From: Candidatus Aminicenantes bacterium UBA2190
GTDB lineage: Bacteria; Acidobacteriota; Aminicenantia; UBA2199
Reading direction: 5' to 3'
NCBI GenBank assembly: GCA_002335385.1
Contig: DCVK01000061.1
Location: 4,370-68,369, forward strand
DNA: 64,000 nt
A program made the position numbers and the translations under genes. This document shows, piece after piece, positions 7,348 through 64,000 of the stretch (within the stretch, counting starts at the first letter, position 1; every line of letters starts with the position of its first letter). Under the pieces are notes generated by a model that worked only from the letters and a program-made list of their open reading frames with translations, had not been told where the DNA came from and ran no database searches.

Positions 7348-7374
7348 AAAAAGGACCGATTTCATGTAATTGAT

Positions 7375-7501
7375 GTAAAGTCAAAATTGAAAAGTGAATT
7401 GAGAAACTCAAGGGGAAGAAATGTATAGGTGGAATTTATATTATTTTTCTTTGATCTTGCCATTGCGCTTTACATTTCACTTTTCACTATTCACTTTTCA
7501 C
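7375..7501. repeat. Heptad-periodic palindromic intergenic element (locus A)
   Basis: The left arm is GTAAAGT CAAAATT GAAAAGT GAATTGA. The right arm is TTTCAC TTTTCAC TATTCAC TTTTCAC. The arms are roughly complementary (about 14 of 17). The right arm overlaps the pgi stop codon. Confidence 0.7.
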
Positions 7502-9125
7502 TAGGATTCTTGTCTCTGCAATATTCGATCAACGCCCGGGTCGAACCGTCCTCATCGTCGGCGGGCAACTCGCCCTTGATCTTGGGCAACAGGCGGCCGG
7601 CGATCTTCTTCCCCAGCTCCACGCCCCACTGATCGAAGGAAAAGACATTCCAGAGCACTCCCTGGGCGAACACCTTGTGCTCGTAGAGGGCGATCAGCTT
7701 GCCCAGGGTGGCGGGGGTGAGTTCCTCGGCGAGGATGGTGTTGCTCGGGCGGTTTCCGGCGAATTCGCGGAACGGCTGGAGCGCTGCAGGGACTTTCTCG
7801 CGGGCCAGTTCCTCCCGGGTCCTGCCGAAGGCCAGCGCCTGCGCCTGGGCGAACATGTTGGCCAGCAACTGTTCGTGATGATCGCGGAACGGTTCCAGCG
7901 AACGGCGGTAGCCGATGAAATCGCAGGGGACCGCCTGGGTGCCCTGGTGCAGCAGCTGGAAAAACGCGTGCTGGCCCCCTGTGCCCGGTTCTCCCCAGAG
8001 CACCGGCGCGGTCGCGTAGTCCACCTCCCTGCCGCCGCGGTCGACGCCCTTGCCGTTGGACTCCATCTCCAGCTGCTGCAGGAAGGCCGGAAAGAGTCGG
8101 AGGTACTGGCTGTACGGCAGGACGGCATGAGTGGCGGCCCCCATGAAATCGGCGTGCCAGACGCCCAGCAGCGCCAGCAGCAGCGGCAGGTTCTCTCGCG
8201 GCGGCGCGCTGCGGAAATGGCGGTCCATGGCCGCACAGCCGCTCAGCATGTCGATGAAGCGCTCGGGACCGACAGCCATCATCAGCGGCAGGCCGACCGC
8301 CGAGGAAAGCGAAAAGCGCCCGCCCACCCAATCCCAGAATTCGAAGACATTCTCGGCGGCAACGCCCCATGCCAGCGCCGCCTGCGGATGGGCGGTCACG
8401 GCAGCGACGTGGCGGACCAGGGCGGCCCGGTCCTGAAAATGTTCGAGCAGCCAGTCGCGGGCAGCGCCGGCGTTGGCCATGGTTTCCTGGGTGGTGAAGG
8501 TCTTGGAAGCGATGATGAACAGCGTCGTCTCCGGGGAGAGGAAGCGCAGCGTCTCGGACAAGTGGCTGGGATCAAGGTTGGACACGAAATGGACCTGCAG
8601 GTCGCGCTGGGAGTAGAAGCGCAGGGCGGCGCAGGCCATGCGCGGGCCCAGGTCGGAGCCGCCGATGCCGATGTGAACGACATGGCGCAGGGGGCGGCCG
8701 CCATGGCCGATCCAGTTCCCCGAGCGGATGCGTCCGGCGGCGGCGGCCATCTGCTCCCTCACCTCGCGGATGCGCGGCATGACGTCGGCGCCGTCGACCC
8801 GCTGCGGGCGACCGGAAGAATCGCGCAGCGCCCAGTGCAGGGCCGGCCGGCCCTCGGTCTCGTTGACCGCCTCGCCGGCGAACAGTCGCCGGACTTCCTG
8901 CTCCAGGCCGCAGGCTGCGGCCAGGGCGAACAGCAGGTCCAGGGTCTCGTCGTTGACCGGGTTTTTCGCAAAGTCGAGATAAATGCCCTCGGCCTGGAGC
9001 GCGTAGCGCCGGCCGCGCCCGGGGTCGGCGGCGAAAAGGTCGCGCAGGTGCAGCTTCTTCATCCCCACCGCATGCTTTCTCAAGGCCAGCCACTCGGGCA
9101 TCGTCGACCTGCATCGCCGGTTCAT
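7491..9125 (-). CDS. pgi: Glucose-6-phosphate isomerase
   Basis: 544-aa ORF with clear PGI similarity throughout (HLRDLF..D..R, IGIGGSDLGP, WGEPGTGGQHAFFQLLHQGT). A GGGAGAAG RBS lies upstream of ATG 9125. Confidence 0.95.
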   Translation of the reverse strand: MNRRCRSTMPEWLALRKHAVGMKKLHLRDLFAADPGRGRRYALQAEGIYLDFAKNPVNDETLDLLFALAAACGLEQEVRRLFAGEAVNETEGRPALHWALRDSSGRPQRVDGADVMPRIREVREQMAAAAGRIRSGNWIGHGGRPLRHVVHIGIGGSDLGPRMACAALRFYSQRDLQVHFVSNLDPSHLSETLRFLSPETTLFIIASKTFTTQETMANAGAARDWLLEHFQDRAALVRHVAAVTAHPQAALAWGVAAENVFEFWDWVGGRFSLSSAVGLPLMMAVGPERFIDMLSGCAAMDRHFRSAPPRENLPLLLALLGVWHADFMGAATHAVLPYSQYLRLFPAFLQQLEMESNGKGVDRGGREVDYATAPVLWGEPGTGGQHAFFQLLHQGTQAVPCDFIGYRRSLEPFRDHHEQLLANMFAQAQALAFGRTREELAREKVPAALQPFREFAGNRPSNTILAEELTPATLGKLIALYEHKVFAQGVLWNVFSFDQWGVELGKKIAGRLLPKIKGELPADDEDGSTRALIEYCRDKNPSEK

Positions 9126-11667: not shown

Positions 11668-11680
11668 GGCTTGCAGCAAT

Positions 11681-11945
11681 CGGTTTGCGGTTGACGGTGC
11701 ACGGTGTAGGGCAAGAAAAGAAAGCAATAATAAGAATTAACCGCCAAATCCCAAATTCCAATGACCCAATCCCCTAGCGGGGACTTTGACCCAAACGAAG
11801 AGAATGCCCATTTCAAGGGGCTTTCGTTTGGGAAATTGGAATTTGGAGCTTGGAATTTATTTGGAATTTGGTGCTTGAGATTTGGAATTCAAGTCTTACG
11901 ATTGCCTCTTCTCTTCCCGTCAACCGTCAACCGTTTACCGTATGC
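11681..11945. repeat. Nested heptad-periodic palindromic element (locus C)
   Basis: The outer arms are CGGTnnn x4 (11681-11708) and CCGTnnn x4 (11917-11944). The inner arms are CCAAnnn x4 (11744-11771) and a TTGGnnn array (11830-11890). The centre is a perfect 10-bp stem, 11790-11799 with 11823-11832. Confidence 0.8.
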
Positions 11946-11962
11946 CGAGTTCGCAGCGGCGC

Positions 11963-14846: not shown

Positions 14847-16082
14847 GTGATCAATTACGAGCCGTTTTTTTCGAATAACGCCAAGGGCATGAAACGTTCC
14901 GAGATCCGCGAGCTGCTGAAGCTCACCGCCAGGCCGGGTATCATCTCTTTTGCCGGCGGCCTGCCCGCCCCCGACCTTTTCCCGGTCGAGGAGATCAAGG
15001 AGATGTCGCGCGTCATCATGGAGCGCGAGGGCAAGACCGCCCTGCAGTACGGCCCCACCGAGGGCGACACCCGCCTGCGCGAGGAACTGGCCAAGATGAT
15101 GCAGAGGGACGGGGTGAACATCACCAGCAACCACCTGCTGATCGTCACCTCCTCGCAGCAGGGGCTGGACCTGACGGGCAAGATATTCATCGACCCGGGC
15201 GACGTGGTCATGACCAGCCGCCCCACGTATGTCGGCGCCATCCAGGCCTTCCACTCCTACGGGGCGAAGATGATCGGCGTCGAGCAGGACGATGAGGGGA
15301 CGCAGACGGCCCAGCTGGAGGCGGAGATCGAAAAGCTGGCCGCCAAGGGTGTCAAGCCGAAGTTCATCTACGAGATCCCCGACTTCCAGAACCCCTCGGG
15401 CATCACCATGAGCCTGAAGCGCCGCCAGGAGCTCCTGCGCATCGCGGAAAAATACGACCTGGTCATCGTCGAGGACTCCCCCTACCGCCAGCTGCGCTTC
15501 GAGGGCAAGACCGAGCCCTCGCTGCTGGGCATGCACCCGGAGCGGGTCCTCGGCCTCTATACCTTCAGCAAGATCCTGCTGCCCGGCTTCCGTTTGGGCT
15601 GGATGGCCGGCCCCAACGAACTGATCCAGAAAGCGGTGACCGCCAAGCAGTCGGTCGACCTGTGCTCGCCCCCCTTCAACCAGGCCATCCTCTATGAATA
15701 CCTGAGCCGCGGGCTGCTGGAGAAGCAGATCGAGGTCATCATCAAGGCCTACCGGGAAAAGCGCGACTTCATGCTGGCCATGCTCGGCAAATACATGCCC
15801 AAGCTTCCCGGCCTGACGTGGACCCGGCCCCACGGCGGCCTTTTCCTGTGGGTCACCCTGCCGGAGAGCATGGATACCGCCGAGATGTTCCACAGCGCCA
15901 TCGAAAAGCAGGTAGCCTACGTGGTCGGCACGGCGTTCTATCCCGACGGCGGCGGCCGCAACTCGTTCCGCATGAACTTCTCCTACTCCAGCCAGGCCGA
16001 GATCGAGGAGGGCGTCAAGCGCCTGAGCCAGGTCATTTCCTCCTGGAAGGGCGGCCGCGAGGCGTCGATCATCTCCCCCTGA
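14847..16082 (+). CDS. PLP-dependent aminotransferase, class I/II (2-aminoadipate/aromatic aminotransferase-like)
   Basis: 411-aa ORF with EIRELLKL..GIISFAGGLPAP at the N-terminus and a FSKILLPGFRLGW PLP-lysine region. A GTG start is preceded by AAGGAGGA. Confidence 0.85.
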   Translation: MINYEPFFSNNAKGMKRSEIRELLKLTARPGIISFAGGLPAPDLFPVEEIKEMSRVIMEREGKTALQYGPTEGDTRLREELAKMMQRDGVNITSNHLLIVTSSQQGLDLTGKIFIDPGDVVMTSRPTYVGAIQAFHSYGAKMIGVEQDDEGTQTAQLEAEIEKLAAKGVKPKFIYEIPDFQNPSGITMSLKRRQELLRIAEKYDLVIVEDSPYRQLRFEGKTEPSLLGMHPERVLGLYTFSKILLPGFRLGWMAGPNELIQKAVTAKQSVDLCSPPFNQAILYEYLSRGLLEKQIEVIIKAYREKRDFMLAMLGKYMPKLPGLTWTRPHGGLFLWVTLPESMDTAEMFHSAIEKQVAYVVGTAFYPDGGGRNSFRMNFSYSSQAEIEEGVKRLSQVISSWKGGREASIISP

Positions 16083-16228
16083 GAAAATGGCGCCCGGTGG
16101 ACGGCGGGAAAGAAGCCCCGCACGGGAGTCAAGCCCCCGATTCCCAATCAGTTCCAGCCTGTGAATTCCGCTGTCCCCACCTTGGCGATTCCCCGAAATT
16201 CTCATGGTAATCGTCAATCGCCCTGCTG

Positions 16229-16331
16229 TTTGGACATTGGGTCATTGGTGCTTGGAGCCTGCCGGGAATTTGCAGCTTGGAGCCTGGCGCTGTTCTTTCT
16301 GGCCGGCCGCCGTCAACCGCTGACCGTTTCC
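16229..16331. repeat. Heptad-periodic element, right-half type (locus D)
   Basis: TTGGnnn-type units are followed by CCGTCAA CCGCTGA CCGTTTC and abut the mglA stop. It shares an exact 13-mer (in reverse complement) and a 10-mer with locus C. Confidence 0.65.
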
Positions 16332-16921
16332 TAGCCGATCTTGTTCTTGACCTCGGACATGATCAGCTTGGAGATGGCCTTCAGCGTATCGACCACCCCG
16401 TCGCCGCGGTAAGCGACCGCTTCCAGCACCGGCTCTTCCTTCTTCCTCAGGGCGCTGATCAGCTCGTTGGCCGGCGTGACGTTGGGCAGGTCGCGCTTGT
16501 TCAACTGCAGGACATAGGGGATGGTGGAGAAATCGATCTTGTAGTCGCGCAGGTTCTCCAGCATGTCCTGGATGCTCTCGAGGTTGGCCTCGAAGCGCTC
16601 GGTCTGGGAGTCGGCCACGAAGACCAGGCCGTCCACGCCCTTCAGGATGAGCTTGCGCGAGGCGCTGTAGTAGATCTGACCGGGGACGGTGTACAGGTGG
16701 AAGCGCACCTTGTAGTCCTTGATGGTGCCCAGGTCGAGGGGGAAGAAATCAAAGAACAGCGTGCGCTCGGTTTCGGTGGCCAGGCTGACCAGCTTGCCCT
16801 TGTTGTCCTTCTTGATCTTCTCGTAGATATACTTGATGTTGGTGGTCTTGCCGCTGAGTCCGGGGCCGTAGTAAACGATCTTGAAGTTGATCTCGCGCGT
16901 GGAGTAGTTCAGGAATGACAA
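16331..16921 (-). CDS. mglA: Ras-like small GTPase MglA
   Basis: Near-colinear similarity to Myxococcus MglA: MSFLNYSTREINFKIVYYGPGLSGKTTN..., RFHLYTVPGQ, LQLNKRDLP. Confidence 0.93.
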   Translation of the reverse strand: MSFLNYSTREINFKIVYYGPGLSGKTTNIKYIYEKIKKDNKGKLVSLATETERTLFFDFFPLDLGTIKDYKVRFHLYTVPGQIYYSASRKLILKGVDGLVFVADSQTERFEANLESIQDMLENLRDYKIDFSTIPYVLQLNKRDLPNVTPANELISALRKKEEPVLEAVAYRGDGVVDTLKAISKLIMSEVKNKIG

Positions 16922-19998: not shown

Positions 19999-20015
19999 GC
20001 TCTCTCTCTCAACAA

Positions 20016-20164: not shown

Positions 20165-20251
<87 letters not shown>

Positions 20252-28711: not shown

Positions 28712-28755
28712 GAGAAGCCGGGCCGCCGCATTCCGTCGCCCGCCCCGCCCCGCCT

Positions 28756-28784
28756 TTGGCAAATCGCCCGGAATCGCATATAAT
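28756..28784 (+). promoter_or_regulatory. Duplicated leaderless-type promoter TTGGCA-17-TATAAT, 6 nt upstream of ATG 28791
   Basis: It has the same geometry as the promoter at 35755-35783. It now faces the truncated gene fragment and the NtrC-like regulator. Confidence 0.45.
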
Positions 28785-28790
28785 ATCGCC

Positions 28791-28937
28791 ATGCCGGCCG
28801 AGAGCAAGAAACTTTTCCTGAAACCGCATGAAGAGAAGCGCATCCTCGACGGCGAATTCTGGGCCTACGGCGAAGAAATCCGCATTCAACGGAGGAAAGG
28901 GGCATCCACCATAAATTTGCCGGTTGTCCCTGAGTGA
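28791..28937 (+). pseudogene. Truncated duplicate of the 5' end of the rRNA methyltransferase gene at 35790
   Basis: MPAESKKLFLKPHEEKRILDGEFWAYGEEIR matches MPTEYMKLFLKPHEEKRILDGEFWAYDNEIR at 25 of 31 aa. At nucleotide level 80 of 93 nt are identical, with a 37-nt perfect core. Similarity then ends and a stop follows at 28935-28937. Confidence 0.8.
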
Positions 28938-30295
28938 ACATGGGTGACACGGAGAGATTTTTCCGCTTGAATGTCCTGATCGTGGACGATGAAGCCAATA
29001 TCCGCAAGACGCTCTCATACTGCCTGGAAGCCGATGGAAACAGGGTCATCGCCGTGAGCAATCCGGCGGACGCCGTAAAGGAGGCCCGCAGGCGTTCCTT
29101 CGATCTGGCGTTCGTCGATCTCAAGCTGGGTGAAGAGAACGGCATGGATTTGATCCCGATATTGCTCATGGATTCTCCCTGGATCAAGATCGTTGTCATC
29201 ACCGCGCATGCCTCCATCGAGAGCGCCGTCGAGGCCATCCAGCGCGGCGCCACCGACTATATCGCCAAACCCTTCACTCCGGATCAGGTCAAGCTCATCA
29301 CCCGGAGGATCGGCAGGATCAGAGAGCTGGAAACCGAGATCGCGGTACTCAAGGAGAACATGCAGCGGCTGGGTCCGGAGGATCGGCTTCAGAGTCTGAG
29401 TGCCGGCATGCAAAGAGTCATTGAAACCGCGAAAAAGGCCGCAGCCTCGGAGGCGATCGTCTTGCTTTGCGGTGAAAGCGGCACGGGAAAATCAGTGTTT
29501 GCCAGGGCGATCCACCACTGGAGTCCGCGAGCGGCAAAACCCATGGGCGTTGTGGCTTGTCCAGCGGTTCCTCCCGATCTTCTTGAGAGTGAGTTGTTCG
29601 GGCATGCCAAAGGGGCATTTACCGGCGCAATTCGGGATAATCCGGGACGCATCGCCGCATGTGAAGGCGGTACGCTTTTCCTGGATGAGATCGGCGATAT
29701 GGCTCCTGCCGTGCAGGCCAAATTGCTGCGGTTCATCCAGGACAAGGAATATGAGCGCCTGGGGGAATCGCAGGTACGCAAGGCGGATGTCCGCATCATC
29801 GCCGCCACGAATGCCGACCTCAAAAAGCGCGTAGCCGAGGGTCGATTCCGGGAAGACCTGTTCTATCGGCTGAACGTAATTTGCCTGACGATTCCCCCGC
29901 TTCGTGATCGACCGGATGACATTGTGCCACTGGCCAGGGATTTTCTCAGGCATCTCTGCCAGGCCAACCATAAGGCGATTCTTGGGTTTACCTCCGGAGC
30001 CGAGAAATTCTTGTTAAGCCAGGCTTGGCCGGGAAATGTTCGGGAACTCCGCAACACCATCGAGCGGGTGGTCATCCTGGGCGGCGGCGAATGGATCGAT
30101 TTGTCCGATTTTCCCGAAAAAACGGTTTCCAGCTCCGGCACTCCAGCCCTTGGCGACAAGGTGCCGTTGGCCACCATCGAAGAATTGCACATCAAAAGAG
30201 TCATTGCCAATACCGCCTCACTCCAGGAAGCTGCGGATGTTCTGGGTATCGACCAGGCAACGCTCTGGCGCAGGAGAAGGATTTACGGAATTTGA
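28934..30295 (+). CDS. Sigma-54-dependent response regulator (NtrC family)
   Basis: A receiver domain (LIVDDE...DLAFVDLKL), an AAA+ domain with GESGTGKS and the GAFTGA loop (KGAFTGA), and a C-terminal Fis-type HTH. The start is GTG 28934 or ATG 28940, overlapping the stop of the gene fragment. Confidence 0.92.
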   Translation: MNMGDTERFFRLNVLIVDDEANIRKTLSYCLEADGNRVIAVSNPADAVKEARRRSFDLAFVDLKLGEENGMDLIPILLMDSPWIKIVVITAHASIESAVEAIQRGATDYIAKPFTPDQVKLITRRIGRIRELETEIAVLKENMQRLGPEDRLQSLSAGMQRVIETAKKAAASEAIVLLCGESGTGKSVFARAIHHWSPRAAKPMGVVACPAVPPDLLESELFGHAKGAFTGAIRDNPGRIAACEGGTLFLDEIGDMAPAVQAKLLRFIQDKEYERLGESQVRKADVRIIAATNADLKKRVAEGRFREDLFYRLNVICLTIPPLRDRPDDIVPLARDFLRHLCQANHKAILGFTSGAEKFLLSQAWPGNVRELRNTIERVVILGGGEWIDLSDFPEKTVSSSGTPALGDKVPLATIEELHIKRVIANTASLQEAADVLGIDQATLWRRRRIYGI

Positions 30296-30319
30296 TTCCG
30301 CGTTTTCTTGCCATCCACC

Positions 30320-30359
30320 TTGCAATTCGCAAGACATTTCTTTGTCAGATATTGCAATT
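30320..30359 (+). promoter_or_regulatory. Candidate enhancer (UAS): two TTGCAATT sites 32 bp apart
   Basis: TTGCAATT occurs at 30320-30327 and 30352-30359, and each contains the palindromic hexamer TTGCAA. The sites lie 60-100 nt upstream of the sigma-54 promoter. Confidence 0.3.
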
Positions 30360-30417
30360 TTCAAAGCCCGTCATCCTGGCTGCAAGAATAAGCCAGGGAA
30401 AACGTGGTCCTGATATA

Positions 30418-30432
30418 TGGCACGCCTTTTGC
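30418..30432 (+). promoter_or_regulatory. Sigma-54 (-24/-12) promoter
   Basis: TGGCACgccttTTGC matches the consensus TGGCAC-N5-TTGC exactly. It lies 45 nt upstream of the kinase gene start and directly downstream of the NtrC-type activator gene. Confidence 0.7.
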
Positions 30433-30476
30433 CTGTACTAAGGTGACAACGGTTGCCATTTGGAGGAATGCATCCA

Positions 30477-32309
30477 ATGACGTTAAAGAAAAAGATTCTC
30501 ATCGGGTATGGCGTCGCGTTCGCCCTCATGGTGCTCGTGGTGGCTTGGGCGATAACGAACCTGGTGTCGCTGGGCAGGGCGACCGACGCCATCCTCAGCG
30601 ATAACTACCGCAGCATCCTCGCCGCCGAGAACATGGTGGATGCCTTGGAGCGGCAGGACAGCGGGACGCTGCTCCTGTTCCTGGGCGAAAACGAAAAGGG
30701 GATCGCGCAGTTTCGGGAAAACGAAGCCGTCTTCCTGGAATGGCTGGCCAGGGCGAAAGACAACATCACGATTCAGGGAGAGGCGGGACTTGTCCAATCC
30801 ATCGAGACGAATTACTCGGCTTATCGAAAGCAATTCTCCGCGCTGACCGACTTCAGTGAAACGAACAAAGCGGCCTTGGTGCCCACCCATTATCAGGACA
30901 AAGTCTACCCCCCCTTCATCCAGGTTCGTGAGGCGTGTGTCGGCCTGCGCAACCTCAACGAGGAGACCATGTACGCCGCCAGCCTCGGGGCCGGCGCCGT
31001 GGCCAGGCGCGCGATCTGGTCAACGGCTCTCGTGGCCGCGTCGGCACTGATCGTGGCCTTGATGTTCAGCTTGTTTCTCGCCGAGCGGATTGCCCAACCG
31101 ATCCGCCGCTTCATGGAGGCGTCGCGGAGAATCTCCTCGGGCGACTATTCCGTCCAGGTGCCCGTTAAAACCGACGACGAGCTTGGGCATCTGGCCAGAG
31201 AGTTCAATCAGATGTCCCTTCAGCTTGGCCGCTACCACGAAATGAACTTCGACCAAATCATTGCTGAAAAGAACAAGGGCGAGGCGATTCTCTCGAGCAT
31301 CGAGGATGGCTTGGTGGTTTTCGACATCCAGCTCAAGGTGGCCGGCATCAATCCCGCCGCCCGCCGGATGCTGAAGCTGGAATTCACTGAAAGCTCCTCG
31401 TTACGCTGCATGGACATTCTGCCGGATCAGCAGGTCTGCGATCTGATCCACAAGACAGTCGAGACGGGAGCACAGCCGAACATCCCGGACGAACAACGGA
31501 TTATCGTTCTCCCGGATAATGAAGGTTCCAGGCATTACTTTTTTTCGGTTACGGCGATTCGCGGAAGGGACCAAAAACTGTCCGGCATTGTGCTCCTGCT
31601 CAGGGACGTGACTCGCCTGAAGGAAGTGGAGCGACTCAAGAGTGAGTTCATTATGGCCGCGTCTCATGAGCTGCGCACGCCACTGACCAGCCTGAGCATG
31701 AGCGTGGACCTGCTCATGGAACATGCAACCGGCAATCTGGCTGAAAGGGATCGGGATCTCCTGCAAGCAGCTCACGAGGAAGTCCACCGCATGAAGGAGC
31801 TCGTGAATGACTTGCTTGACCTCTCAAAAATCGAGGCGGGCCGGATCGAACTTGAGTTCGAAAATGTTCCGGTTGCAACCTTGTTCGGGCACGTCGAAGC
31901 GGTTTTCAAAAGCCAGACAGACATGAAACAGGTTTCGCTTGAATCGGCGCTCACCCATGATTCGCTCAAGGTCCGCGCCGATACCAACAAGATCACATGG
32001 GTATTGTCCAATCTGATTTCCAATGCCCTGCGCTATGTGAGCAGGGGTGGCCAGATAAGTCTGAAGGCTCTTCAGATCGGACATCACGTCCATCTCTCCG
32101 TGCGTGATAACGGGCCGGGAATTCCTCTCGAGTATCAATCCAAGTTATTTCAGAAATTCGTCCAGGTGAGAGGGCAGGAATCAAGTGGAACAGGGCTGGG
32201 ACTGTCCATTTGCAAGGAGATCGTGCGCGCTCATGGCGGCACGATCTGGGTGGAATCATCCGCAGGTCAGGGAAGCACATTCACCTTTTCCCTGCCGGTG
32301 GCCCAATAG
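30477..32309 (+). CDS. Sensor histidine kinase (TM-sensor, HAMP, PAS, HisKA, HATPase_c)
   Basis: H-box SHELRTPLTSL, N-box SNLISNALRY and G-boxes RDNGPGIP and GTGLGLSICKEIV, with two TM segments flanking an approximately 170-aa periplasmic region. The start MTLKKK (30477) lies 9 nt after GGAGGA. Confidence 0.9.
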   Translation: MTLKKKILIGYGVAFALMVLVVAWAITNLVSLGRATDAILSDNYRSILAAENMVDALERQDSGTLLLFLGENEKGIAQFRENEAVFLEWLARAKDNITIQGEAGLVQSIETNYSAYRKQFSALTDFSETNKAALVPTHYQDKVYPPFIQVREACVGLRNLNEETMYAASLGAGAVARRAIWSTALVAASALIVALMFSLFLAERIAQPIRRFMEASRRISSGDYSVQVPVKTDDELGHLAREFNQMSLQLGRYHEMNFDQIIAEKNKGEAILSSIEDGLVVFDIQLKVAGINPAARRMLKLEFTESSSLRCMDILPDQQVCDLIHKTVETGAQPNIPDEQRIIVLPDNEGSRHYFFSVTAIRGRDQKLSGIVLLLRDVTRLKEVERLKSEFIMAASHELRTPLTSLSMSVDLLMEHATGNLAERDRDLLQAAHEEVHRMKELVNDLLDLSKIEAGRIELEFENVPVATLFGHVEAVFKSQTDMKQVSLESALTHDSLKVRADTNKITWVLSNLISNALRYVSRGGQISLKALQIGHHVHLSVRDNGPGIPLEYQSKLFQKFVQVRGQESSGTGLGLSICKEIVRAHGGTIWVESSAGQGSTFTFSLPVAQ

Positions 32310-32318
32310 GAGGAACAC

Positions 32319-33044
32319 ATGGAAAAGGATTCCATCCTGGTCGTTGACGATGAGAAGAACATCCGTCTGACCATGTCGCAGTCATTGGAACCACTGGAGA
32401 TTCCAGTCCAGACTGCCGTGAATGGCGAGGAGGCACTTCAGAAACTTCGCAAGACTTCATACAGTCTGGTTTTCCTGGATTTAAAAATGCCTGGAATAGA
32501 CGGGATGGAGGTCCTTCGGCAAATCAAGGACAGCTGGCCCAAAGTCCGGGTAATCATCATCACTGCCCACGGGACGATTGAATCCGCCGTGGAGGCCATG
32601 AAATACGGCGCGGTAGATTTCATTCAGAAGCCTTTCAGTCCCGTTGAGATTCGGGAGTTGGCCACTCGGGTGCTGCGGCGCGAGGCGCTGCTGGAGAAGG
32701 ACGCGTTCGATTATTTCTCCTTGATCGAACTCACCAAAAAATACATCTCAGATCGCGGATTCTCGGCTGCCCGGGAAACCGTTCGGAAGGCCATGGCGGC
32801 GGACCCGACCCAGCCGGAGGCGTACAACCTTCTCGGGGCATTGCATGAAATCAAGGGTAATAGGTTGGAGGCCCAAAAATTCTACCGGGCGTCCTTGGAT
32901 ATCGACTCCTCATTCAAACCGGCCCGAGCGAACCTGGATCGTATCACGTCCTGGGAAAAAAAAGGCAGGATCGATCTCGGTCCCGACAGGAAAACCGCCG
33001 ATTTGCCGGACGAAGGCATCAAGGATGGCGCGGATGAAGAATAA
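32319..33044 (+). CDS. Response regulator receiver domain fused to a TPR-like C-terminal region
   Basis: A CheY-like domain (LVVDDE...LVFLDLKMPG...KPF) is followed by AYNLLGALHEIKGNRLEAQKFYRASLDID, which is TPR-like. An AGGAGG RBS is present. Confidence 0.85.
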   Translation: MEKDSILVVDDEKNIRLTMSQSLEPLEIPVQTAVNGEEALQKLRKTSYSLVFLDLKMPGIDGMEVLRQIKDSWPKVRVIIITAHGTIESAVEAMKYGAVDFIQKPFSPVEIRELATRVLRREALLEKDAFDYFSLIELTKKYISDRGFSAARETVRKAMAADPTQPEAYNLLGALHEIKGNRLEAQKFYRASLDIDSSFKPARANLDRITSWEKKGRIDLGPDRKTADLPDEGIKDGADEE

Positions 33045-33474
33045 CCGCTACATCGTGATCGTGGGCTGCGGCAGGCTGGGATCGCATCTGGCCAACCATC
33101 TCAGTCGTAGCGGCAATTCGGTGGTGGTGATTGATAAGAACGAGCCCACTTTCAAAGACCTGTCGCCAGATTTCAGCGGTTTTCGAGTTCACGGGGATGC
33201 CACGCAGATGGCCGTTCTGAAAGAGGCCAAGGTCAACCAAGCGGATATTCTGATCGCCACCACCCACGAGGACAACGTCAATTTGATGGTGGCTCAAGTG
33301 GCGCAGGGTATTTTCAGGGTTCCCCATGTGCTGGCCAGGGTTTTCGATCCCAAAAGAATGGAGGTTTATGCGCAACTGGGCATCGACACCATATGCCCGA
33401 CATCTGTGGCCGCGGAGATGTTTCTTCAAGCCGTTGCCAATGGCGCGGCCGGACGCAGGGGAGCCAATCCATGA
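33034..33474 (+). CDS. TrkA-N (RCK N-terminal, NAD-binding) domain protein
   Basis: IVIVGCGRLGSHLANHL Rossmann motif in a protein of about 146 aa with no RCK_C domain. The start is 33025 or 33034, overlapping the upstream gene. Confidence 0.8.
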   Translation: MKNNRYIVIVGCGRLGSHLANHLSRSGNSVVVIDKNEPTFKDLSPDFSGFRVHGDATQMAVLKEAKVNQADILIATTHEDNVNLMVAQVAQGIFRVPHVLARVFDPKRMEVYAQLGIDTICPTSVAAEMFLQAVANGAAGRRGANP

Positions 33475-34133
33475 AAGTGCTCATCGTCGGAAGCGGCAAA
33501 ACGCTATATTTTTTATCCCGGAATTTTTCTGCGCGCGGATACCAGGTCGTCATCATCAACCGCAACCCGGAAGAATGTATCCAACTGTCCCGCCAACTGA
33601 CTGCCACGGTGGTTTGCGGCGACGGAAGCGATGACGACATTCTCAAGGATGCCGGCGCCATGGGCGCCGATGCCGTGCTCGCCATCACTCCGAACGACCA
33701 GGACAATCTGGTCATCTGTCAACTTGCCTCCCGCAAATTCAGTGTTCCCAGAACCATGGCTCTGGCCAACGATCCAGACAATGCCGAAGTTTTCGAAAAG
33801 TTGGGAGTCTCGGGCTTTTCCACAACCCACATCGTCGGCAGTCTGATCGAGCAACGGGCCTCCTTGGAACAGATTACCAACTTGTTGCCCGTAGGAGAAG
33901 GCCGGGTGAACGTGACGGAAATCGTGCTTACTGGAGACTCCCCGGTCGTAGGGAAGCTCTTGAAGGATATCGACCTGCCTGAAAACGCCTTGGTGGCCGT
34001 GGTGATCCGCGACAAAAAGCCGATCATCCCCCGCGGAGCCACTGTCATGCTGGCAGGCGACCGAGTCGTACTGATTACACTTCCGGAAAATCATGGTCCG
34101 GTGCTCAAGGCGTTCACCGGCGAACGGTTATAG
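33471..34133 (+). CDS. TrkA/KtrA-like protein (RCK_N plus RCK_C)
   Basis: 220 aa. The N-terminus VLIVGSGKTLYFL has a degenerate GxGxxG motif. The C-terminal TrkA_C-like region is VTEIVLTGDSPVVGKLLKDIDLPE...VVIRD. It overlaps the upstream gene as ATGA. Confidence 0.8.
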   Translation: MKVLIVGSGKTLYFLSRNFSARGYQVVIINRNPEECIQLSRQLTATVVCGDGSDDDILKDAGAMGADAVLAITPNDQDNLVICQLASRKFSVPRTMALANDPDNAEVFEKLGVSGFSTTHIVGSLIEQRASLEQITNLLPVGEGRVNVTEIVLTGDSPVVGKLLKDIDLPENALVAVVIRDKKPIIPRGATVMLAGDRVVLITLPENHGPVLKAFTGERL

Positions 34134-34147
34134 GGGGGGACCGGCCC

Positions 34148-35623
34148 TTGCGAGAGAAAGAATATCTCAAACAGCGCTATTCCTCGATCATTTCCGCAGT
34201 CGGAATGATTCTGCTTCTGTCCAGCGTTATGATGTTGACACCACTTTTAATTCTCATTTCACATCCCGAAGAGGCCATCTACTTGTGGGCCTTCTGTATA
34301 CCCGCGGCCAGTCTTTTTTTTATGGGATTTTTCTTGTGGAAGGCATTCCGTTCTCCACTCAGCATCACGCTCACCGTCCAGGAGGGCGGCATCACGATTT
34401 TGTTGAGTTGGATTGTCGTCATCCTCTTTTCCGCATGGCCGTTTGCATCCGCCTTGGATCTGCCGTATTCACAGGCCATATTTGAATCGGTCAGCGGATG
34501 GACCACCACCGGACTCACGGTCGTGAACGTGGCCAGCACCGGCAAAATGGTTCTGATCTGGCGCAGCATCATCCAATTGGCCGGTGGCGCAGGGTTGGCC
34601 ATCATCATGATGTCGGCCATCGTCGGTCCGGTTGGCGTCGGCATTGCGAGCGCAGAGGGCCGAAGTGACCAACTCGTGCCGCAAGTGAAACAGTCGGCAC
34701 GCCTGGTTCTGATCATCTATGCCGGCTACGCCCTCGCCGGAACCATCGCCTATCGGATAGCGGGGATGTCTCTATTTGACGCGGTCAACCATTCCTTTGC
34801 CGCGATTTCCACCGGCGGTTTCTCCACGCGAGCGGAAAGTATCGGATACTGGGATTCAGCCGCCGTTGAAGCCGTGACCCTGCCGCTTATGCTTCTCGGT
34901 AATCTGAGCTTTGTCAGCGCATGGCTGCTGTGGCACGGCAAGCTGCGCACGGTGGTGCGGAACGGCGAAGTGCGCCTATTGGCCGTGCTCATTCCCTTGT
35001 CGGCCGCGGCAGTGTTCCTCCTGACGAGCCAGGCGCTATATCCCCAGCTCGGAAAATCAATTCGCGTCGCTGTCTTCGAAACAGTGACCGCCATAACCAC
35101 CACGGGCTTTTCAACAGTGAATTACGGCAGTTGGAATTCCGCTGGATTATTCCTGTTGATCCTTCTGATGCTGATCGGCGGCGGCACATGTTCCACCGCC
35201 GGTGGCATCAAGCAATATCGCGTCTATTTGTTCTGGAGGACTCTGCGCTGGGACATCCAGCGCGCCATCATGCCGCGCACAGCGATTTTAGAGCGTTCGC
35301 TCTGGGAAGGGAACCGACGCGTCTTTTTGGACGATGCCCGAATCCGTCAAGTGCTGACTTTCATCCTCATGTATCTCATGACCTATCTGTTCGGCGTGCT
35401 GGTTTTATGCGCCTGCGGCTGCCCTCTCGTCGACTCCCTGTTTGAATTCGCCTCCGCTCTTGGAACCGTTGGGCTTTCCGTTGGCGTCACCAGCGCCGGC
35501 ATGCCGGATGCCGCTTTGTGGTCGGAAATCATTGCTATGTTTCTAGGTCGCCTGGAGTTCATTGTCGTGATTGTCAGTGTCATCAAGATCAGCAGCGATG
35601 TGCGAATTCTGAAAAAAGGCTAG
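34148..35623 (+). CDS. trkH: TrkH/KtrB family cation (K+) transporter
   Basis: 491-aa polytopic protein with repeated selectivity-filter-like motifs (SGWTTTGL, ISTGGFS, ITTTGFS, GTVGLSVG). It has a TTG start. Confidence 0.88.
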   Translation: MREKEYLKQRYSSIISAVGMILLLSSVMMLTPLLILISHPEEAIYLWAFCIPAASLFFMGFFLWKAFRSPLSITLTVQEGGITILLSWIVVILFSAWPFASALDLPYSQAIFESVSGWTTTGLTVVNVASTGKMVLIWRSIIQLAGGAGLAIIMMSAIVGPVGVGIASAEGRSDQLVPQVKQSARLVLIIYAGYALAGTIAYRIAGMSLFDAVNHSFAAISTGGFSTRAESIGYWDSAAVEAVTLPLMLLGNLSFVSAWLLWHGKLRTVVRNGEVRLLAVLIPLSAAAVFLLTSQALYPQLGKSIRVAVFETVTAITTTGFSTVNYGSWNSAGLFLLILLMLIGGGTCSTAGGIKQYRVYLFWRTLRWDIQRAIMPRTAILERSLWEGNRRVFLDDARIRQVLTFILMYLMTYLFGVLVLCACGCPLVDSLFEFASALGTVGLSVGVTSAGMPDAALWSEIIAMFLGRLEFIVVIVSVIKISSDVRILKKG

Positions 35624-56069: not shown

Positions 56070-56173
56070 GGTGAAAAAGTGAAAAGTGAAAAGTAAAATG
56101 CAAAGAAAAGACTATGGATGAATTTCTCATTGCCTTCTCTTCACCTTTCACTTTTCACTTTTCACATTTCACC
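56070..56173. repeat. Heptad-periodic palindromic element (locus B)
   Basis: GGTGAAAAAGTGAAAAGTGAAAAGT pairs with ACTTTTCACTTTTCACATTTCACC in a stem of about 24 bp with one bulge. The core motifs GCAAAGAAAAGAC and ATTGCCTTCTCTTCAC are shared with locus C. Confidence 0.8.
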
Positions 56174-56202
56174 GGGTCCTGCAGGATAGCCATTTTACTC
56201 GT

Positions 56203-60149: not shown

Positions 60150-60425
60150 TTATTTCACCTTCGCCTTCTTCTCCTTGATCTTCATCTTTTTCATCTTTTT
60201 CGCAATGGTGTTCCGATGCAGCTTGACGCTGGTCGACATCTTCAACAGATTGTAGTCGTACTTTTCCAGCAGCGCCTGCAGCAGTGTCTTCTCGAATTCA
60301 TCGGTGATCTCCTTGTAGAACAGGAAGCGGGAATTCACCGCCTTGCCGGCCAGGATCTTCATCTGGTTCTTGATGGTCAGGGCTTCAAATTGTTCGGCCA
60401 GTTCGATTATTTTTTTTGCTGTCAT
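60150..60425 (-). CDS. Small Fis-type helix-turn-helix protein with a lysine-rich tail
   Basis: 91-aa ORF. The C-terminal YNLLKMSTSVKLHRNTIAKKMKK resembles the Fis-family HTH_8 domain. It overlaps the cvpA-like 3' end by 41 nt. Confidence 0.55.
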   Translation of the reverse strand: MTAKKIIELAEQFEALTIKNQMKILAGKAVNSRFLFYKEITDEFEKTLLQALLEKYDYNLLKMSTSVKLHRNTIAKKMKKMKIKEKKAKVK

Positions 60426-60930
60426 GGGTTTGTATGACGTTCAGCCTGTCCCGCAGGGCGGGGGGCAGCACCTGGATGCCGGCGACAAGCACCCGGGTCA
60501 GGACGGGCGCCAGTTGCGAGCGTTGCAGCGGTTCCTGGCGGAGGGGGAAAGCCAGGAAACTGTAGATGACGAGGCCGCAGAGGAGAATGCCGCGCAACAG
60601 CCCGAACGCGGCTCCCAGGAGGCGGTCGAGCCCCTTGAGCGGGCCGACGACCAGGAGTTTGCTCACCAGCATGGTCAACAGGGCGCCGGCGGCGGCGACC
60701 AGCGCCAGCACCAGCAAAAAGCCGACGAAATCGGCCAGGCCGCGGTTACGGATCAGGCCGCTCAGCAGCAGTGCGGCATCACGGTAATGGACAAAGGCCA
60801 GTACCAGGGCGGCGACCAGGAAGAGCAGGGACAGCAATTCGCGCACCAGGCCGCGGATGAGGCCGAAAAGGAAGGAAAAGAACAGGATGACGATGAAAAG
60901 CAGGTCCAGGATGTTCAGTTCCCCGTTCAT
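60385..60930 (-). CDS. cvpA: CvpA family membrane protein
   Basis: 181-aa protein with 4 TM segments and an N-terminus of ILDLLFIVILFFSFLFGLIRGLVRELLSL typical of CvpA. It lies downstream of a purine gene, as in many genomes. Confidence 0.75.
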   Translation of the reverse strand: MNGELNILDLLFIVILFFSFLFGLIRGLVRELLSLLFLVAALVLAFVHYRDAALLLSGLIRNRGLADFVGFLLVLALVAAAGALLTMLVSKLLVVGPLKGLDRLLGAAFGLLRGILLCGLVIYSFLAFPLRQEPLQRSQLAPVLTRVLVAGIQVLPPALRDRLNVIQTHDSKKNNRTGRTI

Positions 60931-61847
60931 GGCTGGCGGCCGGTCAGGATGCGGAAGATCTCCCCGTATTTTTCGGCGGTGGCGGTGATCACGTCGTGAG
61001 GGAGCGCCGGGGGAGCCGATCGCTGGTCCCAGGAAGAGGCCAGCAGGTGGTTGCGCACGTACTGCTTGTCCAGGGATGGCGGCTCCTGACCTGGGCGGTA
61101 GTCCGCCAGCTTCCAGAAGCGCGAGGAATCCGGGGTGAAAATCTCGTCGATGACGACGATCTTTCCCTGCTCATCGCGCCCGAACTCGAACTTGGAGTCG
61201 GCGATGATGATCCCGCGCTCCAGGGCATAGGCGCTGGCAAAGGCGAATAGCTTGAGGGACAGTTCGCGCAGTTGATCGGCCGTGTCACGTCCCAGCCGTT
61301 CCGCCAGTTGATCGAGAGTGATGTCCTCGTCGTGGCCTTTATCGGCCTTGGTCGTGGGCGTAAAAATGGCTTGCGGCAGGCGCGCGCCATAGCCGAGACC
61401 GCGGGGCAACTCGACCCCGCAGATCGCCCCCTGCCCGCGATAGGTGTTCCAGCCCGACCCCACGAGGTAAGCGCGGACGATGGCCTCGACCGGGAAGGCG
61501 TCCAGCTTGCGCGCCAGCAGCGAGCGCTGCTCCAGAATGGGGGCGTAGGCCTTGAATTCGGGAAGCTTCTCCGGCTCTGCACTGAGCACGTGGTTGGGGA
61601 TCAAGTCCTTTGTCCGCTCGAACCAGAAGGCGGCGATGCGATTCAGGATGCGGCCCTTGCCCGGGATCAGCGAGGGCAGGATGAAATCAAATGCCGAGAT
61701 GCGGTCGCTGGATACGATCAGCAGACGGCCGTCCACTTCAAAAACATCGCGGACCTTGCCGCGCTTGAATAACTGGAAAGGCAGTTCTGCCTTTGGCAGC
61801 GATTGCAATATTCCTCTCCTCATTGCGGTTTGGTGAATCAGAAGCAT
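60927..61847 (-). CDS. purC: Phosphoribosylaminoimidazole-succinocarboxamide synthase
   Basis: GKVRDVF, SDRISAFD and ADSKFEFG motifs of the long form. The start is uncertain (61847 or the MRRGIL start at 61823). Confidence 0.9.
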   Translation of the reverse strand: MLLIHQTAMRRGILQSLPKAELPFQLFKRGKVRDVFEVDGRLLIVSSDRISAFDFILPSLIPGKGRILNRIAAFWFERTKDLIPNHVLSAEPEKLPEFKAYAPILEQRSLLARKLDAFPVEAIVRAYLVGSGWNTYRGQGAICGVELPRGLGYGARLPQAIFTPTTKADKGHDEDITLDQLAERLGRDTADQLRELSLKLFAFASAYALERGIIIADSKFEFGRDEQGKIVVIDEIFTPDSSRFWKLADYRPGQEPPSLDKQYVRNHLLASSWDQRSAPPALPHDVITATAEKYGEIFRILTGRQP

Positions 61848-61891
61848 TTATTTTATTTGAATCCTATTGGTTTGTCAATCAGCATGCAGAA

Positions 61892-61996
61892 GACATCTGA
61901 CCCCTGACGTCTAACCTCTGACATCTAACGTCAGGCGTCTACCGTCTGACATCTGACATCTGTCGTCTGACATCTGACGTCTAGGGTCTAACATCT
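61892..61996. repeat. Tandem array of 15 heptamers, consensus GAC(A/G)TCT (locus E)
   Basis: It is exactly 105 nt in register: GACATCT GACCCCT GACGTCT AACCTCT GACATCT AACGTCA GGCGTCT ACCGTCT GACATCT GACATCT GTCGTCT GACATCT GACGTCT AGGGTCT AACATCT. It contains an internal 8-bp inverted repeat, 61903-61910 with 61928-61935. Confidence 0.85.
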
Positions 61997-62000
61997 TCTT

Positions 62001-63032
62001 CTAGGCAATGAGCAGCGCATCGCCGTACGAGAAAAAGCGATATTTTTCGGCGATCGCCTGGCGATACGCTTCACGGAGCACATCCAGTCCGGCAAAGGCG
62101 CTGGTCAGGATGAACAGCGACGATCTGGGCAGGTGGAAGTTAGTCAGCAGCTTGTCCACCATGCGGAAGCGGAAACCCGGGCTGATGAAGATATCCGAGC
62201 TGAAATCCTCGCGGGGCCCGGCCAGCCGGGCGTAGCTTTCCAGCGCGCGCACCGTGGTCGTGCCCACCGCCAGCAGCCGCCCGCCGCTTGCCCGCAACTC
62301 GCGAATGCGTTGCGCCGCGGCGGCGCTGATGCGGATGCGCTCACTGCCCAACCGGTGTTGGGTGATATCCTCGGTCTCGATCTTCTGGAACGTGGCTTCG
62401 CCCACATCCAGGGTGATCTCCAGCAACGGATGGCGCTCGCGGAGCCCGGCCAGGAGCTCGGGCGTGAAATGCAGCCCGGCGGTCGGCGCGGCGATGGAGC
62501 CGGGATCGCGGGCATAGACCGTCTGGTAGCGCTCCAGATCGAAGCGGCGCCGGGCGGCCGCCTCCCCTCCCCGGCGCTTGATATAGGGCGGAAGCGGCGC
62601 GTAGCCGTGCTCGAGAACACGGGCGTAGTCACGGTCGAAGCGCAACCGGCGCCGGCCGTGGACGCCGACGGCGATGATCTCACCTCTCGCCCCGCCCTCG
62701 GCGACAAACGAGGCGCCACGCGTGAATCGCGCCGCCGGACGGCACAGGGCCTCGAGCTGACCGCCCCCCAGGTCCCTGACCACCAGCATCTCCGCCGTCC
62801 TGCCGTCGACCTGGCCCAGGAGCCGGGCGGATACCACGCGCGAATTGTTCATGACCAGGAAATCGCCGGCGGCCAGCAGCCGGGGGAGGTCGGCGAAGCG
62901 GTGGTGGGATATCCGCCCGCCGGCACGCTCCAGGAGCAAAAGCCGCGAGCCGTCGCGGCGCTCGGCCGGGTAGCGCGCGATCAATTCCGCAGGCAGGTCA
63001 AAGTCAAACTCGGATAGCTTCATCCCCTGCAA
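62001..63032 (-). CDS. queA: tRNA preQ1(34) S-adenosylmethionine ribosyltransferase-isomerase
   Basis: FDFDLPAELIA, TAGLHFT, VGTTTVRALE and FFSYGDA motifs. Confidence 0.93.
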   Translation of the reverse strand: MQGMKLSEFDFDLPAELIARYPAERRDGSRLLLLERAGGRISHHRFADLPRLLAAGDFLVMNNSRVVSARLLGQVDGRTAEMLVVRDLGGGQLEALCRPAARFTRGASFVAEGGARGEIIAVGVHGRRRLRFDRDYARVLEHGYAPLPPYIKRRGGEAAARRRFDLERYQTVYARDPGSIAAPTAGLHFTPELLAGLRERHPLLEITLDVGEATFQKIETEDITQHRLGSERIRISAAAAQRIRELRASGGRLLAVGTTTVRALESYARLAGPREDFSSDIFISPGFRFRMVDKLLTNFHLPRSSLFILTSAFAGLDVLREAYRQAIAEKYRFFSYGDALLIA

Positions 63033-63045
63033 CCGCTCGATCTAT

Positions 63046-63166
63046 CGTGATTCGTGATTCGAAACGGCATGAGGCCGATCCATTGCATCTGCTCGTCACT
63101 TGTCACTCGTCACGGGTCAAAATAGTTCCTTGAGCTTCTTGCTGACACTGACACTGACACTGTCAC
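63046..63166. repeat. Short-period (7-nt and 6-nt) tandem arrays (locus F)
   Basis: CGTGATT x2 (63046-63059), then CTCGTCA CTTGTCA CTCGTCA CGGGTCA (63092-63119), then TGACAC x3 plus TGTCAC (63143-63166). The last array abuts the EF-G-like stop codon. Confidence 0.65.
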
Positions 63167-64000
63167 TATTCTTCTTCTTCTTTAACCCTTCCTTCCTTGA
63201 CGGCCTCGTCAATGATCTTCTTCTGCAGGTGGCCCGGCACCTCCTCGTAATGCGAAAACTCCATGAAGTAGCTGCCGCGACCGCCGGTGATCGAGGTCAG
63301 CGTCGGCTCGAAGTCGAGCATCTCCGACATGGGCACCACGGCCTTGACCACGTGGTTCTTGCCCTTGATCTCCATGCCCTGGATCTTGCCGCGGCGGCCG
63401 CTGAGGTTGCCGTTGATCTCGCCCATGAACTCCTCGGGAATGACCACTTCCACTTTGACCACCGGCTCGAGGATGGTGGGCTTGGCCGCCTTCATGGCCA
63501 GCTTGAAGGCCATGGAGGAGGCCATCTTGAAGGCCATGTCCGACGAGTCGACCTCGTGGTGGCTGCCGTCGTACAGCTCCACCTTGAAGTCAACCACCGG
63601 GTAGCCGGCCAGCACGCCGGTGTTCTTCGATTCGACGATGCCCTTCTCGATGGCCGGCACGAAGTTGCGCGGAACGGACATGCCCACCAGGGCGTTGACG
63701 AACTCGAAGTCGCCCCCGCGCGGCAGGGGTTCCATGCGGATCAGGACATGGCCGTACTGGCCGCGGCCGCCGCTCTGCTTCTTGTATTTCTTCTCCACGT
63801 CCGACTTGCCCAGCACGGTCTCGCGATAGGCGATCTTCGGGTGCTTCATTGACACGTCCACGCCGTACTTGCGTTTCAGCTTGTTGACCACCATCTCGAT
63901 ATGCAACTGGCCGTTGCCCGAGAGGACCAGCTCCTTGGTCTGCGGGTCGCGCAACATCTTGATGGTGGGATCCTCCTCCATGATGCGCTGCAGGGCGGTG
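63166..64000 (-). CDS. Elongation factor G family protein, C-terminal part (the 5' end lies outside the window)
   Basis: The frame is open to the window edge. Domains III-V of EF-G are recognisable (KQSGGRGQYGHV, AGYPVVDFKV, AFKMA, EPVVKVEV, RRGKIQGME). The acidic tail ends in KEEEE. Confidence 0.88.
   Translation of the reverse strand, partial: TALQRIMEEDPTIKMLRDPQTKELVLSGNGQLHIEMVVNKLKRKYGVDVSMKHPKIAYRETVLGKSDVEKKYKKQSGGRGQYGHVLIRMEPLPRGGDFEFVNALVGMSVPRNFVPAIEKGIVESKNTGVLAGYPVVDFKVELYDGSHHEVDSSDMAFKMASSMAFKLAMKAAKPTILEPVVKVEVVIPEEFMGEINGNLSGRRGKIQGMEIKGKNHVVKAVVPMSEMLDFEPTLTSITGGRGSYFMEFSHYEEVPGHLQKKIIDEAVKEGRVKEEEE

Follow-up and report, generated by a model that had tools for sequence, protein, structure and literature searches.

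Heptanucleotide repeats are the commonest class of long simple sequence repeats (SSRs) in many bacterial genomes, and slippage has been proposed as their source (Mrazek 2007, as cited in PMC4679880 and PMC4692102). In Xanthomonas, related species have arrays of the heptamer GGGAATC at the same intergenic positions, where they vary extensively and are at times organized as inverted pairs (PMC4692102), and heptamers residing near promoters may modulate expression in Nostoc (bioRxiv 10.1101/2022.06.06.494920). Roles in termination and in mRNA stabilisation have been proposed for repetitive extragenic palindromic (REP) elements (PMC3733652). In Acidobacteria, transposases resembling the REP-associated tyrosine transposases (RAYTs) carry long terminal inverted repeats (TIRs) on their flanks (PMC3733652). 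A literature search retrieved no paper joining Acidobacteria with intergenic heptamer repeats. We describe here a heptamer array found in a stretch of 64,000 nucleotides, hereafter called the window (GC content, 63%), from Candidatus Aminicenantes bacterium UBA2190 (Acidobacteriota; contig DCVK01000061.1). The array resides at 61892-61996, downstream of queA, in the queA 3' untranslated region (UTR), and upstream of purC and of the -35 hexamer of the purC promoter. It is best explained as a copy of a hairpin element with arms made of heptamers, a type common in the intergenic gaps of this uncultured lineage.

Read on the plus strand, the 105 nt of the array correspond to 15 consecutive in-register heptamers with the consensus GAC[A/G]TCT. 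This parse, put forward in the original prediction, is confirmed by column counts, by Tandem Repeats Finder (period 7, 13 copies, score 77, 71% matches), and by shuffling. C is found at position 6 in all 15 units, and both T at position 7 and C at position 3 in 14 of them. The column counts first given for positions 6 and 7 are thus correct, while T at position 5, assigned to all the units, is present in 14, as unit 2 is GACCCCT. Identities between residues spaced by 7 nt are 68 out of 98, against a mean of 25 (standard deviation 4.7, maximum 47; z = 9.2) in 20,000 shuffles preserving dinucleotides, and the pattern (AGAYGTC)3, searched allowing up to three mismatches, has nine overlapping matches in the array against 0 expected. 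The sense strand of the array, as of the flanking genes, is the minus strand, on which the 15 units read AGA[C/T]GTC and carry the palindromic core GACGTC. Since the core is palindromic, units can pair with one another. CCTGACGT (61903-61910) is the exact reverse complement of ACGTCAGG (61928-61935), which bears out the early suggestion that the array is partly self-complementary. Neighbouring units are degenerate, and the longest run of identical ones is 2. As reported, 4 nt (TCTT) separate the end of the array from the queA stop codon, which is CTA on the plus strand (62001-62003) and TAG in the sense direction. The whole 156-nt queA-purC spacer is identical in seven assemblies, which derive from several samples, represent a single clone, and were located through a look-up of the CvpA protein. 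The array is therefore not an assembly artefact. Two other features were considered and set aside. Clustering of AatII sites (GACGTC) is unremarkable, 2 of the 18 sites of the window falling in the array, and a 28-codon sense-strand open reading frame (ORF) whose initial ATG falls within the array was dismissed on reading the sequence, having no Shine-Dalgarno (SD) spacing and not being conserved in relatives.

The sense RNA spanning 61888..61999 (minus strand) is predicted to fold into a hairpin of 43 bp, including 10 G.U pairs, with a minimum free energy (MFE) of -53.8 kcal/mol (z = -6.1). Helices of about 6 bp, formed by the palindromic GACGUC cores, are separated by 1x1 mismatches, and the structure is closed by AGAAGA/UCUUCU flanks. 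The predicted stem-loop is stable, lies directly downstream of queA, and begins 5 nt after the stop codon. RNA transcribed from the opposite strand folds at -43.2 kcal/mol. When DNA parameters are used, neither strand goes beyond -18 to -20 kcal/mol, and a DNA cruciform, on this account less plausible than an RNA hairpin, was rejected as the main structure. The C/U variation at position 4 of the unit faces G in every case, and the changes are hence accommodated as G.U pairs (10) on the sense strand, and result in A.C mismatches on the other. The order of the units is relevant to folding, as only 14 of 1000 permutations fold as well as the real order, which beats 98.6% of them. In addition, the variant unit 2 (AGACCCT, in the sense direction) pairs with the variant unit 14 (AGGGGTC) in a compensatory manner, and the closing flanks and this pair point to one common register. 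Known RNA families do not account for the array. At gathering score, Rfam 15 leaves it unmatched over the whole window, detecting only the signal recognition particle (SRP) RNA and two tRNAs, and E-value searches with the locus and the whole window gave at the array only sub-threshold miRNA-like matches (E >= 0.6).

Loci of relatives were retrieved from genome and metagenome collections by using the purC protein. Ten distinct orthologous queA-purC spacers host hairpin elements. Nine are built of heptamers, which belong to five unit types, AGACGTY, ACGGCRT, GTGACGC, ATTCGTR and GTGATSA; the tenth (L084) is not, and carries a C-rich hairpin devoid of heptamers. In L002, L003, L004 and L082 the element has the organization GAAGAAGA-(AGACGTY)n-AGCAAGAG...loop...CTTGCTAAC-(RACGTCT)n-TCTTCTTC, is tandemly duplicated in L004 and L082, and features three left arms in L002. 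ACGGCRT arms are found in L015 and L087, GTGACGC arms in L005 and L088, ATTCGTR arms in L089 and L090, GTGATSA arms in L007; the L005 spacer hosts in addition a nested GGAATTT element. The spacer is short and devoid of elements in five relatives, among them L006, L086, L091 and L094, where about 15-35 nt separate the queA stop codon from the -35 hexamer. Spacers are 23-26 nt long in L006, L091 and L094, and 125-254 nt long when an element is present, denoting presence/absence polymorphism at orthologous sites. All the element-bearing spacers fold into long hairpins, and the sense strand folds better than the antisense in 10 of 11. The array of the window has termini in common with the AGACGTY family, namely TAG-AAGAAGAYGT on one side and ...GTCTTCT...CTGATTGACAA on the opposite one. 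The AGCAAGAG/CTTGCTAAC core is missing from it, and its interior is made only of AGAYGTC units of the left-arm type. Within a locus 94% identical to the window over the aligned region (L168), a GTGACGC-type right arm is found at this site, and not the AGAYGTC array. The C-rich/G-rich hairpin (CCCCCC...GGGGGG), which has no heptamer periodicity, was observed at L084:~850-1050 and in L085, and belongs to one Aminicenantes lineage.

The turnover of the spacer is best illustrated by L087 and L088. The two loci, both from metagenome contigs, are 99.6-99.9% identical over 10.9 kb, and free of indels except for the queA-purC spacer, where they carry wholly different elements, an ACGGCRT-type one of 114 nt at L087:4828-4941, and a GTGACGC-type one of 138 nt at L088:4804-4941. 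Seven synonymous differences crowd the last ~36 nt of queA and point to a recombination tract. Four other heptamer arrays have the same copy number in the two strains, and a sampled 600-nt stretch of purC is 100% identical in strains with differing spacers.

The array is not isolated. At least five further hairpin elements made of heptamer or hexamer arrays are found in the window, and the longest inverted repeats of the window are all composed of short tandem units. The RNA MFE of these sister elements ranges from -31 to -121 kcal/mol. Two of them, E1 (7374..7504) and E3 (56071..56175), consist of inverted GTGAAAA/TTTCACT arrays and form one family. E2 (11668..11946) has outer TTGACGG/CCGTCAA arms, lies between convergent genes, reaches -121 kcal/mol, and encloses a nested AAATTCC/GGAATTT element (~11735-11890). 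E6 (16082..16332), which also lies between convergent genes, is a diverged, decayed copy of the E2 composite. E5 (63040..63167), made of TCGTGAT, CTCGTCA and hexameric CTGACA arrays, resides in the spacer between fusA, coding for elongation factor G (EF-G), and queA, and begins at the base following the EF-G stop codon. The array at queA, E1, E2, E5 and E6, that is 5 of the 6 elements of the window, abut stop codons. The right arm of E1 encodes the end of pgi, the phosphoglucose isomerase gene, down to its stop codon. The three final codons and the stop (window 7491-7504, minus strand; ...SEK*, AGT GAA AAG TGA) belong to the heptamer array of E1, so the repeat defines the pgi C-terminus. Arrays of period 6 (AGTGTC, AGTGAT, AGTGTT) are found directly after the EF-G stop codon in the window (63139-63171), at L004:2480-2520 and at L089:990-1030, where they precede AGCAAGAAG or AGCAGCAGC; because of these, the class is not strictly heptameric. 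The AAATTCC/GGAATTT element aligns over ~150 nt between three genomes, at a different locus in each, and lies nested within other elements. Copies of it are found in E2/E6 of the window, at L005:1760-1945 and at L004:5750-5930, and share the conserved core CCCAAACGAAGA.

Period 7 is preferred. Six arrays pass the same threshold at lag 7 in the 64 kb of the window (9.4 per 100 kb) and none at lags 5, 8, 9, 10 and 11; the original prediction, in which arrays at other loci have different heptamers and the same period, is upheld in this respect. Aminicenantes with a purC identity of at least 70% carry 28 lag-7 arrays per 100 kb, and none at lags 5, 8, 10 and 11. Among close relatives, 32 lag-7 arrays were counted in 114 kb against 0-1 at other lags. 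Lower-GC Aminicenantes (57-67% purC identity) have 0 per 100 kb, and all other loci 4.9 per 100 kb, nearly all from other Acidobacteriota. Counting purC loci, arrays were detected in 10 of the 15 labelled Acidobacteriota vs 2 of the 51 assigned to other phyla. Pyrinomonadaceae carry, starting a few nt after the purC stop codon, near-perfect hairpins with arms of TTTTAGA, ATTACGA, GAATTAA or GGCAGTA units, and L032 has a hairpin with CCGTGAA arms upstream of purC. On tandem reading of the window and of the Acidobacteriota loci, GTGA/TCAC occurs in ~7 of roughly 25 unit families against ~1.4 expected (GTGAAAA, GTGACGC, GTGATGA, ATTCGTG, AGTGAC, CTCGTCAC, CCGTGAA), an excess for which common ancestry, or a motif serving for recognition, could be responsible. 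A different arrangement was observed in a Competibacteraceae metagenome-assembled genome, a gammaproteobacterium, where ~20 tandem TAAAGG[C/T] heptamers extend up to the purC start (L016:3864-4006). This direct-repeat array resembles the TAACTGA repeats of Beggiatoaceae.

Taken as a whole, these data suggest that the array is a structured intergenic element akin to both short tandemly repeated repetitive (STRR) and REP sequences, and specifically a derived, core-less copy of the AGACGTY-family hairpin. We give this interpretation an even chance. If the array acts at all, it probably does so as a 3'-end hairpin for the queA mRNA. Upon transcription of queA, the RNA would form an imperfect hairpin of ~43 bp at the mRNA 3' end. 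The hairpin may be a barrier to 3' exonucleases, or a weak terminator devoid of a U-tract, or both, and would accordingly set the 3' end of the queA mRNA, and curb read-through into the purC promoter. Elements of this sort may arise and be kept by replication slippage of heptamers, by template switching within the palindrome, and by replacement of the spacer through homologous recombination. Template switching within palindromes is an established mechanism.

Several data weigh against this interpretation. Folding would occur in any tandem array whose unit has a palindromic core. The gap between sense and antisense energies is the same when units are permuted, and is therefore a property of unit composition. 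No U-tract follows the stem, the tail being UCUUCUGCAU, and a scan for consensus terminators found nothing at the array; in L002 and L082, T-runs are found after the elements. Analysis by RNAalifold of six AGACGTY-family elements yielded 31 conserved pairs and zero double compensatory changes, a result which is uninformative, and in the same family G.U cells (~10) are roughly as many as A.C cells (~8). Selection on the sense RNA thus has weak support, and, judging from the unit permutations and from the G.U and A.C counts, the folding advantage of the sense strand may be compositional. E3 is not at a 3' end, as it lies between divergent genes, encoding a DAO oxidoreductase and a PGM/PMM protein, and hence elements of the class also reside away from 3' ends. 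Any function must be dispensable, since the orthologous site of five relatives is devoid of elements. Finally, dispersal has been shown for the sister families, and not for AGAYGTY, because this unit, among 169 loci, is present at the queA-purC spacer only.

The main rival of the proposed interpretation is neutrality. The array could be a by-product, a heptanucleotide microsatellite made by slippage, tolerated in non-coding DNA, folding only because of its palindromic core, and having no role for queA or purC. We regard this as possible, though clearly less probable. Slippage of the polymerase has been invoked for the excess of heptamer SSRs (Mrazek 2007, as cited in PMC4679880 and PMC4692102), and empty sites in relatives, rapid turnover unconstrained by sequence even in near-identical strains, the lack of covariation within the AGACGTY family, and an energy gap explained by unit composition are all compatible with neutrality. 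The hypothesis does not readily explain why the real unit order beats 98.6% of the permutations, and why the flanks and the unit 2/14 pair share one register. Arm complementarity, moreover, persists across unrelated heptamer families, although template switching could ensure this without selection, and slippage alone leaves the dispersed, nested copies of ~150 nt unexplained.

According to a further hypothesis, the array is a non-autonomous element, similar to REPs or to the miniature transposable elements with inverted repeats known as MITEs, which actively inserts beside stop codons and is mobilised in trans, for example by a RAYT-like transposase of the 'TIRYT' kind. Presence/absence polymorphism at orthologous sites, the sharing of families among different loci and their nesting in each other, the tandem duplicates in L004 and L082, and the five out of six window elements abutting a stop codon fit the hypothesis, and tyrosine transposases associated with TIRs are encoded in Acidobacteria (PMC3733652). 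Yet, the L087/L088 swap, with its divergent tract extending into queA, resembles homologous recombination rather than precise insertion, no target-site duplication was identified, no unpaired GTAG or CGTC tag was recognised, and the AGAYGTY family occupies one site only. ORFs similar to IS200 or RAYT transposases were not detected by phmmer, with IS200 and IS608 TnpA queries, in the window and the 169 loci, though the test is weak. Pfam searches with 20 window genes revealed neither transposases nor reverse transcriptases. Mobilisation in trans is, on balance, unlikely. A broader view is that Acidobacteriota, the present Aminicenantes clade among them, have a dedicated system of interchangeable hairpin cassettes with heptamer arms, located at fixed stop-codon sites. 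Even near-identical strains would swap cassettes or build them anew, and the 7-nt register, kept although unit sequences are unrelated, would be imposed by a specific machine, and not by generic slippage. The machine may be a transposase, a template-switching enzyme, or an oligomeric protein reading RNA or DNA in 7-nt steps. We hold such a system to be improbable.

The array had been thought to fill most of the space in which a purC promoter would be expected. This is not borne out. In the sense direction, the queA stop codon is followed by 4 nt, the 15 AGA[C/T]GTC units, 13 nt, the promoter TTGACA-17-TAAAAT (61850..61878, minus strand), and the purC leader. The promoter is near-consensus (11/12 matches) and is conserved. 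The sequence GATTGACAA...AATAAAATA is kept after the spacer in all relatives with the queA-purC arrangement, one subclade having the -10 variant CATACAAT. As an intact and conserved promoter lies downstream of the array, the array neither replaces nor occupies it. Location 13 nt upstream of the -35 hexamer would suit a protein-binding array controlling purC transcription, either an operator, an iteron or an UP-like element, and regulatory roles have been proposed for heptamer repeats located near Nostoc promoters (bioRxiv 10.1101/2022.06.06.494920). A sequence-specific site for a purine regulator would be conserved, however, and in relatives the same promoter is preceded by unrelated heptamers, by the C-rich hairpin, or by only ~15 nt. 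Binding of a purC regulator, which the original prediction had left for testing, is thus very improbable.

Proximity to a promoter and a 15-unit tandem repeat are also what suggested a contingency tract, in which frequent changes in copy number would switch expression in a phase-variable manner. The chances of this are slimmer still. The array resides, as first noted, outside any coding frame, and is also outside the -35/-10 spacer. From its position after the queA stop codon and 13 nt before the -35 hexamer, a change in copy number would alter neither a reading frame nor promoter spacing. Units are degenerate (71% matches), and no more than two neighbours are identical. Uniform copy number had been indicated at the outset as evidence against a contingency role, and uniform it is, as far as the assemblies show, in the seven which span the array, all of the same clone. 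Four other arrays are constant between strains 99.6-99.9% identical. The identity of the array in the seven assemblies and the degeneracy of the repeat both disfavour the hypothesis.

An equally faint prospect is that the transcribed array works as a periodic platform for an oligomeric RNA-binding protein reading a short motif every 7 nt, as HutP does with NAG-N4 repeats. HutP recognises UAG triplets spaced by 4 nt. In the sense RNA, (C/U)AGA recurs at strict 7-nt spacing in 13 of the 15 units. Other families, such as GGAATTT, do not have the YAGA motif, unrelated units are found at orthologous sites, nearly all of the RNA is predicted to be paired, and no candidate protein was identified.

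The genes flanking the array are readily recognised. The queA ORF (62001-63032, minus strand; Pfam Queuosine_synth, 7e-111) ends with the TAG at 62001..62003, and encodes a product of 343 aa, for which an exact protein look-up found no record; public gene calls give 340 aa. The longest purC ORF spans 60927-61847 (minus strand; Pfam SAICAR_synt, 1e-72), and its first ATG (61847) overlaps the -10 region. The true start is probably the TTG at 61806-61808, preceded at 4 nt by the SD sequence GGAGAGG (61806..61819 for the two, minus strand). The resulting product of 293 aa has the same length as that called in public assemblies of the same sequence, and the purC product is 85% identical at the amino acid level to that of a genome labelled Aminicenantes bacterium UBA6072. 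The gene cvpA follows purC with a 4-nt overlap, and is followed by a gene for a 91-aa Fis-type helix-turn-helix protein (window 60150-60930); this order is maintained in related assemblies. Elsewhere in the window, the SRP RNA is of the small type (69 bits) and adjoins a tRNA (20015-20251), the second tRNA being at 27932-28004; these are the sole Rfam matches at gathering score. A run of plus-strand genes at 28061-35623, including PTS EIIA, a sigma-54 activator, a PAS/HAMP histidine kinase and a response regulator, has a third-position GC content of 0.67-0.73 vs 0.8-0.9 elsewhere, and may represent acquired DNA.

Records of intergenic heptamer repeats in cyanobacteria, Xanthomonas and Beggiatoaceae go back decades, and there is still no agreement on their function and origin. 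An unrelated, largely uncultured phylum shows the same 7-nt periodicity, organised here as the arms of long hairpins. The sequence of the unit changes freely, and what persists is the period and the complementarity of the arms. This provides a comparative handle on whether the preference for 7 nt is mutational or selected, and on whether hairpins of this kind set mRNA 3' ends. On practical grounds, breaks in short-read assemblies and misleading annotation of gene ends are likely effects of the elements, one of which supplies the pgi stop codon.

Of the known systems, long SSRs (LSSRs; Mrazek et al. 2007) and STRRs (Mazel et al. 1990), as these are presented in PMC4679880 and PMC4692102, share with the elements described here tandem units of 7 nt, a location between genes, a large number of arrays in each genome, the predominance of period 7 and the presence of several unit families. 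They differ in that unit sequences and phylum are others (Aminicenantes/Acidobacteriota, 63% GC), and arrays are here degenerate, mostly form the two arms of long hairpins, and often surround a non-repeat core. In the 64 kb of genome analysed, resemblance to LSSRs and STRRs is seen in a longer-than-chance 7-nt array, its intergenic location, and an excess of period 7 with several families. The STRR units of cyanobacteria are CCCCAGT, TTGGTCA and CAACAGT. The units found here (AGAYGTC, GTGAAAA, GGAATTT, CCGTCAA and others) are not identical to these, and strict membership in STRR1-3 is not supported. Some inverted pairs able to form stem-loops are known also among the GGGAATC repeats of Xanthomonas and the GGGGAYT repeats of Nostoc (Rehm et al. 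2015, PMC4692102). Those repeats are G-rich, form quadruplexes, and have one dominant unit per genome, whereas the present elements have no quadruplex potential, feature many unrelated units, and are swapped as a whole between near-identical strains.

REPs, bacterial interspersed mosaic elements and stem-loop MITEs (among them the GTAG- and CGTC-tagged REPs, PMC3733652) are similarly intergenic imperfect palindromes, organized in dispersed families, clusters and dimers. Presence/absence polymorphism is common to the two groups, as are the proposed roles in termination or mRNA stabilisation (PMC3733652). REPs, however, are 20-40 bp long, with stems of 5-13 bp and an unpaired GTAG or CGTC tag (PMC3733652), while the elements described here span 100-280 nt and have arms of tandem heptamers. 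Beggiatoaceae, Cyanobacteria and Bacteroidetes have TAACTGA repeats (MacGregor 2015, PMC4679880), which are also short intergenic heptamer arrays near gene ends, but consist of one conserved unit, nearly always in direct orientation, are mostly unstructured, and reside just upstream of start codons (PMC4679880). In host-adapted pathogens such as Haemophilus and Neisseria, contingency loci have in common with the array short tandem repeats near a gene start; here units are degenerate, no effect on frame or promoter spacing is possible, and length does not vary among assemblies. Intergenic heptamer SSRs and palindromic intergenic repeats are therefore both known. What appears undescribed is their combination, in which heptamers build the arms of hairpins, unit families are many and unrelated, elements are swapped between strains, and occurrence is Acidobacteriota-wide.

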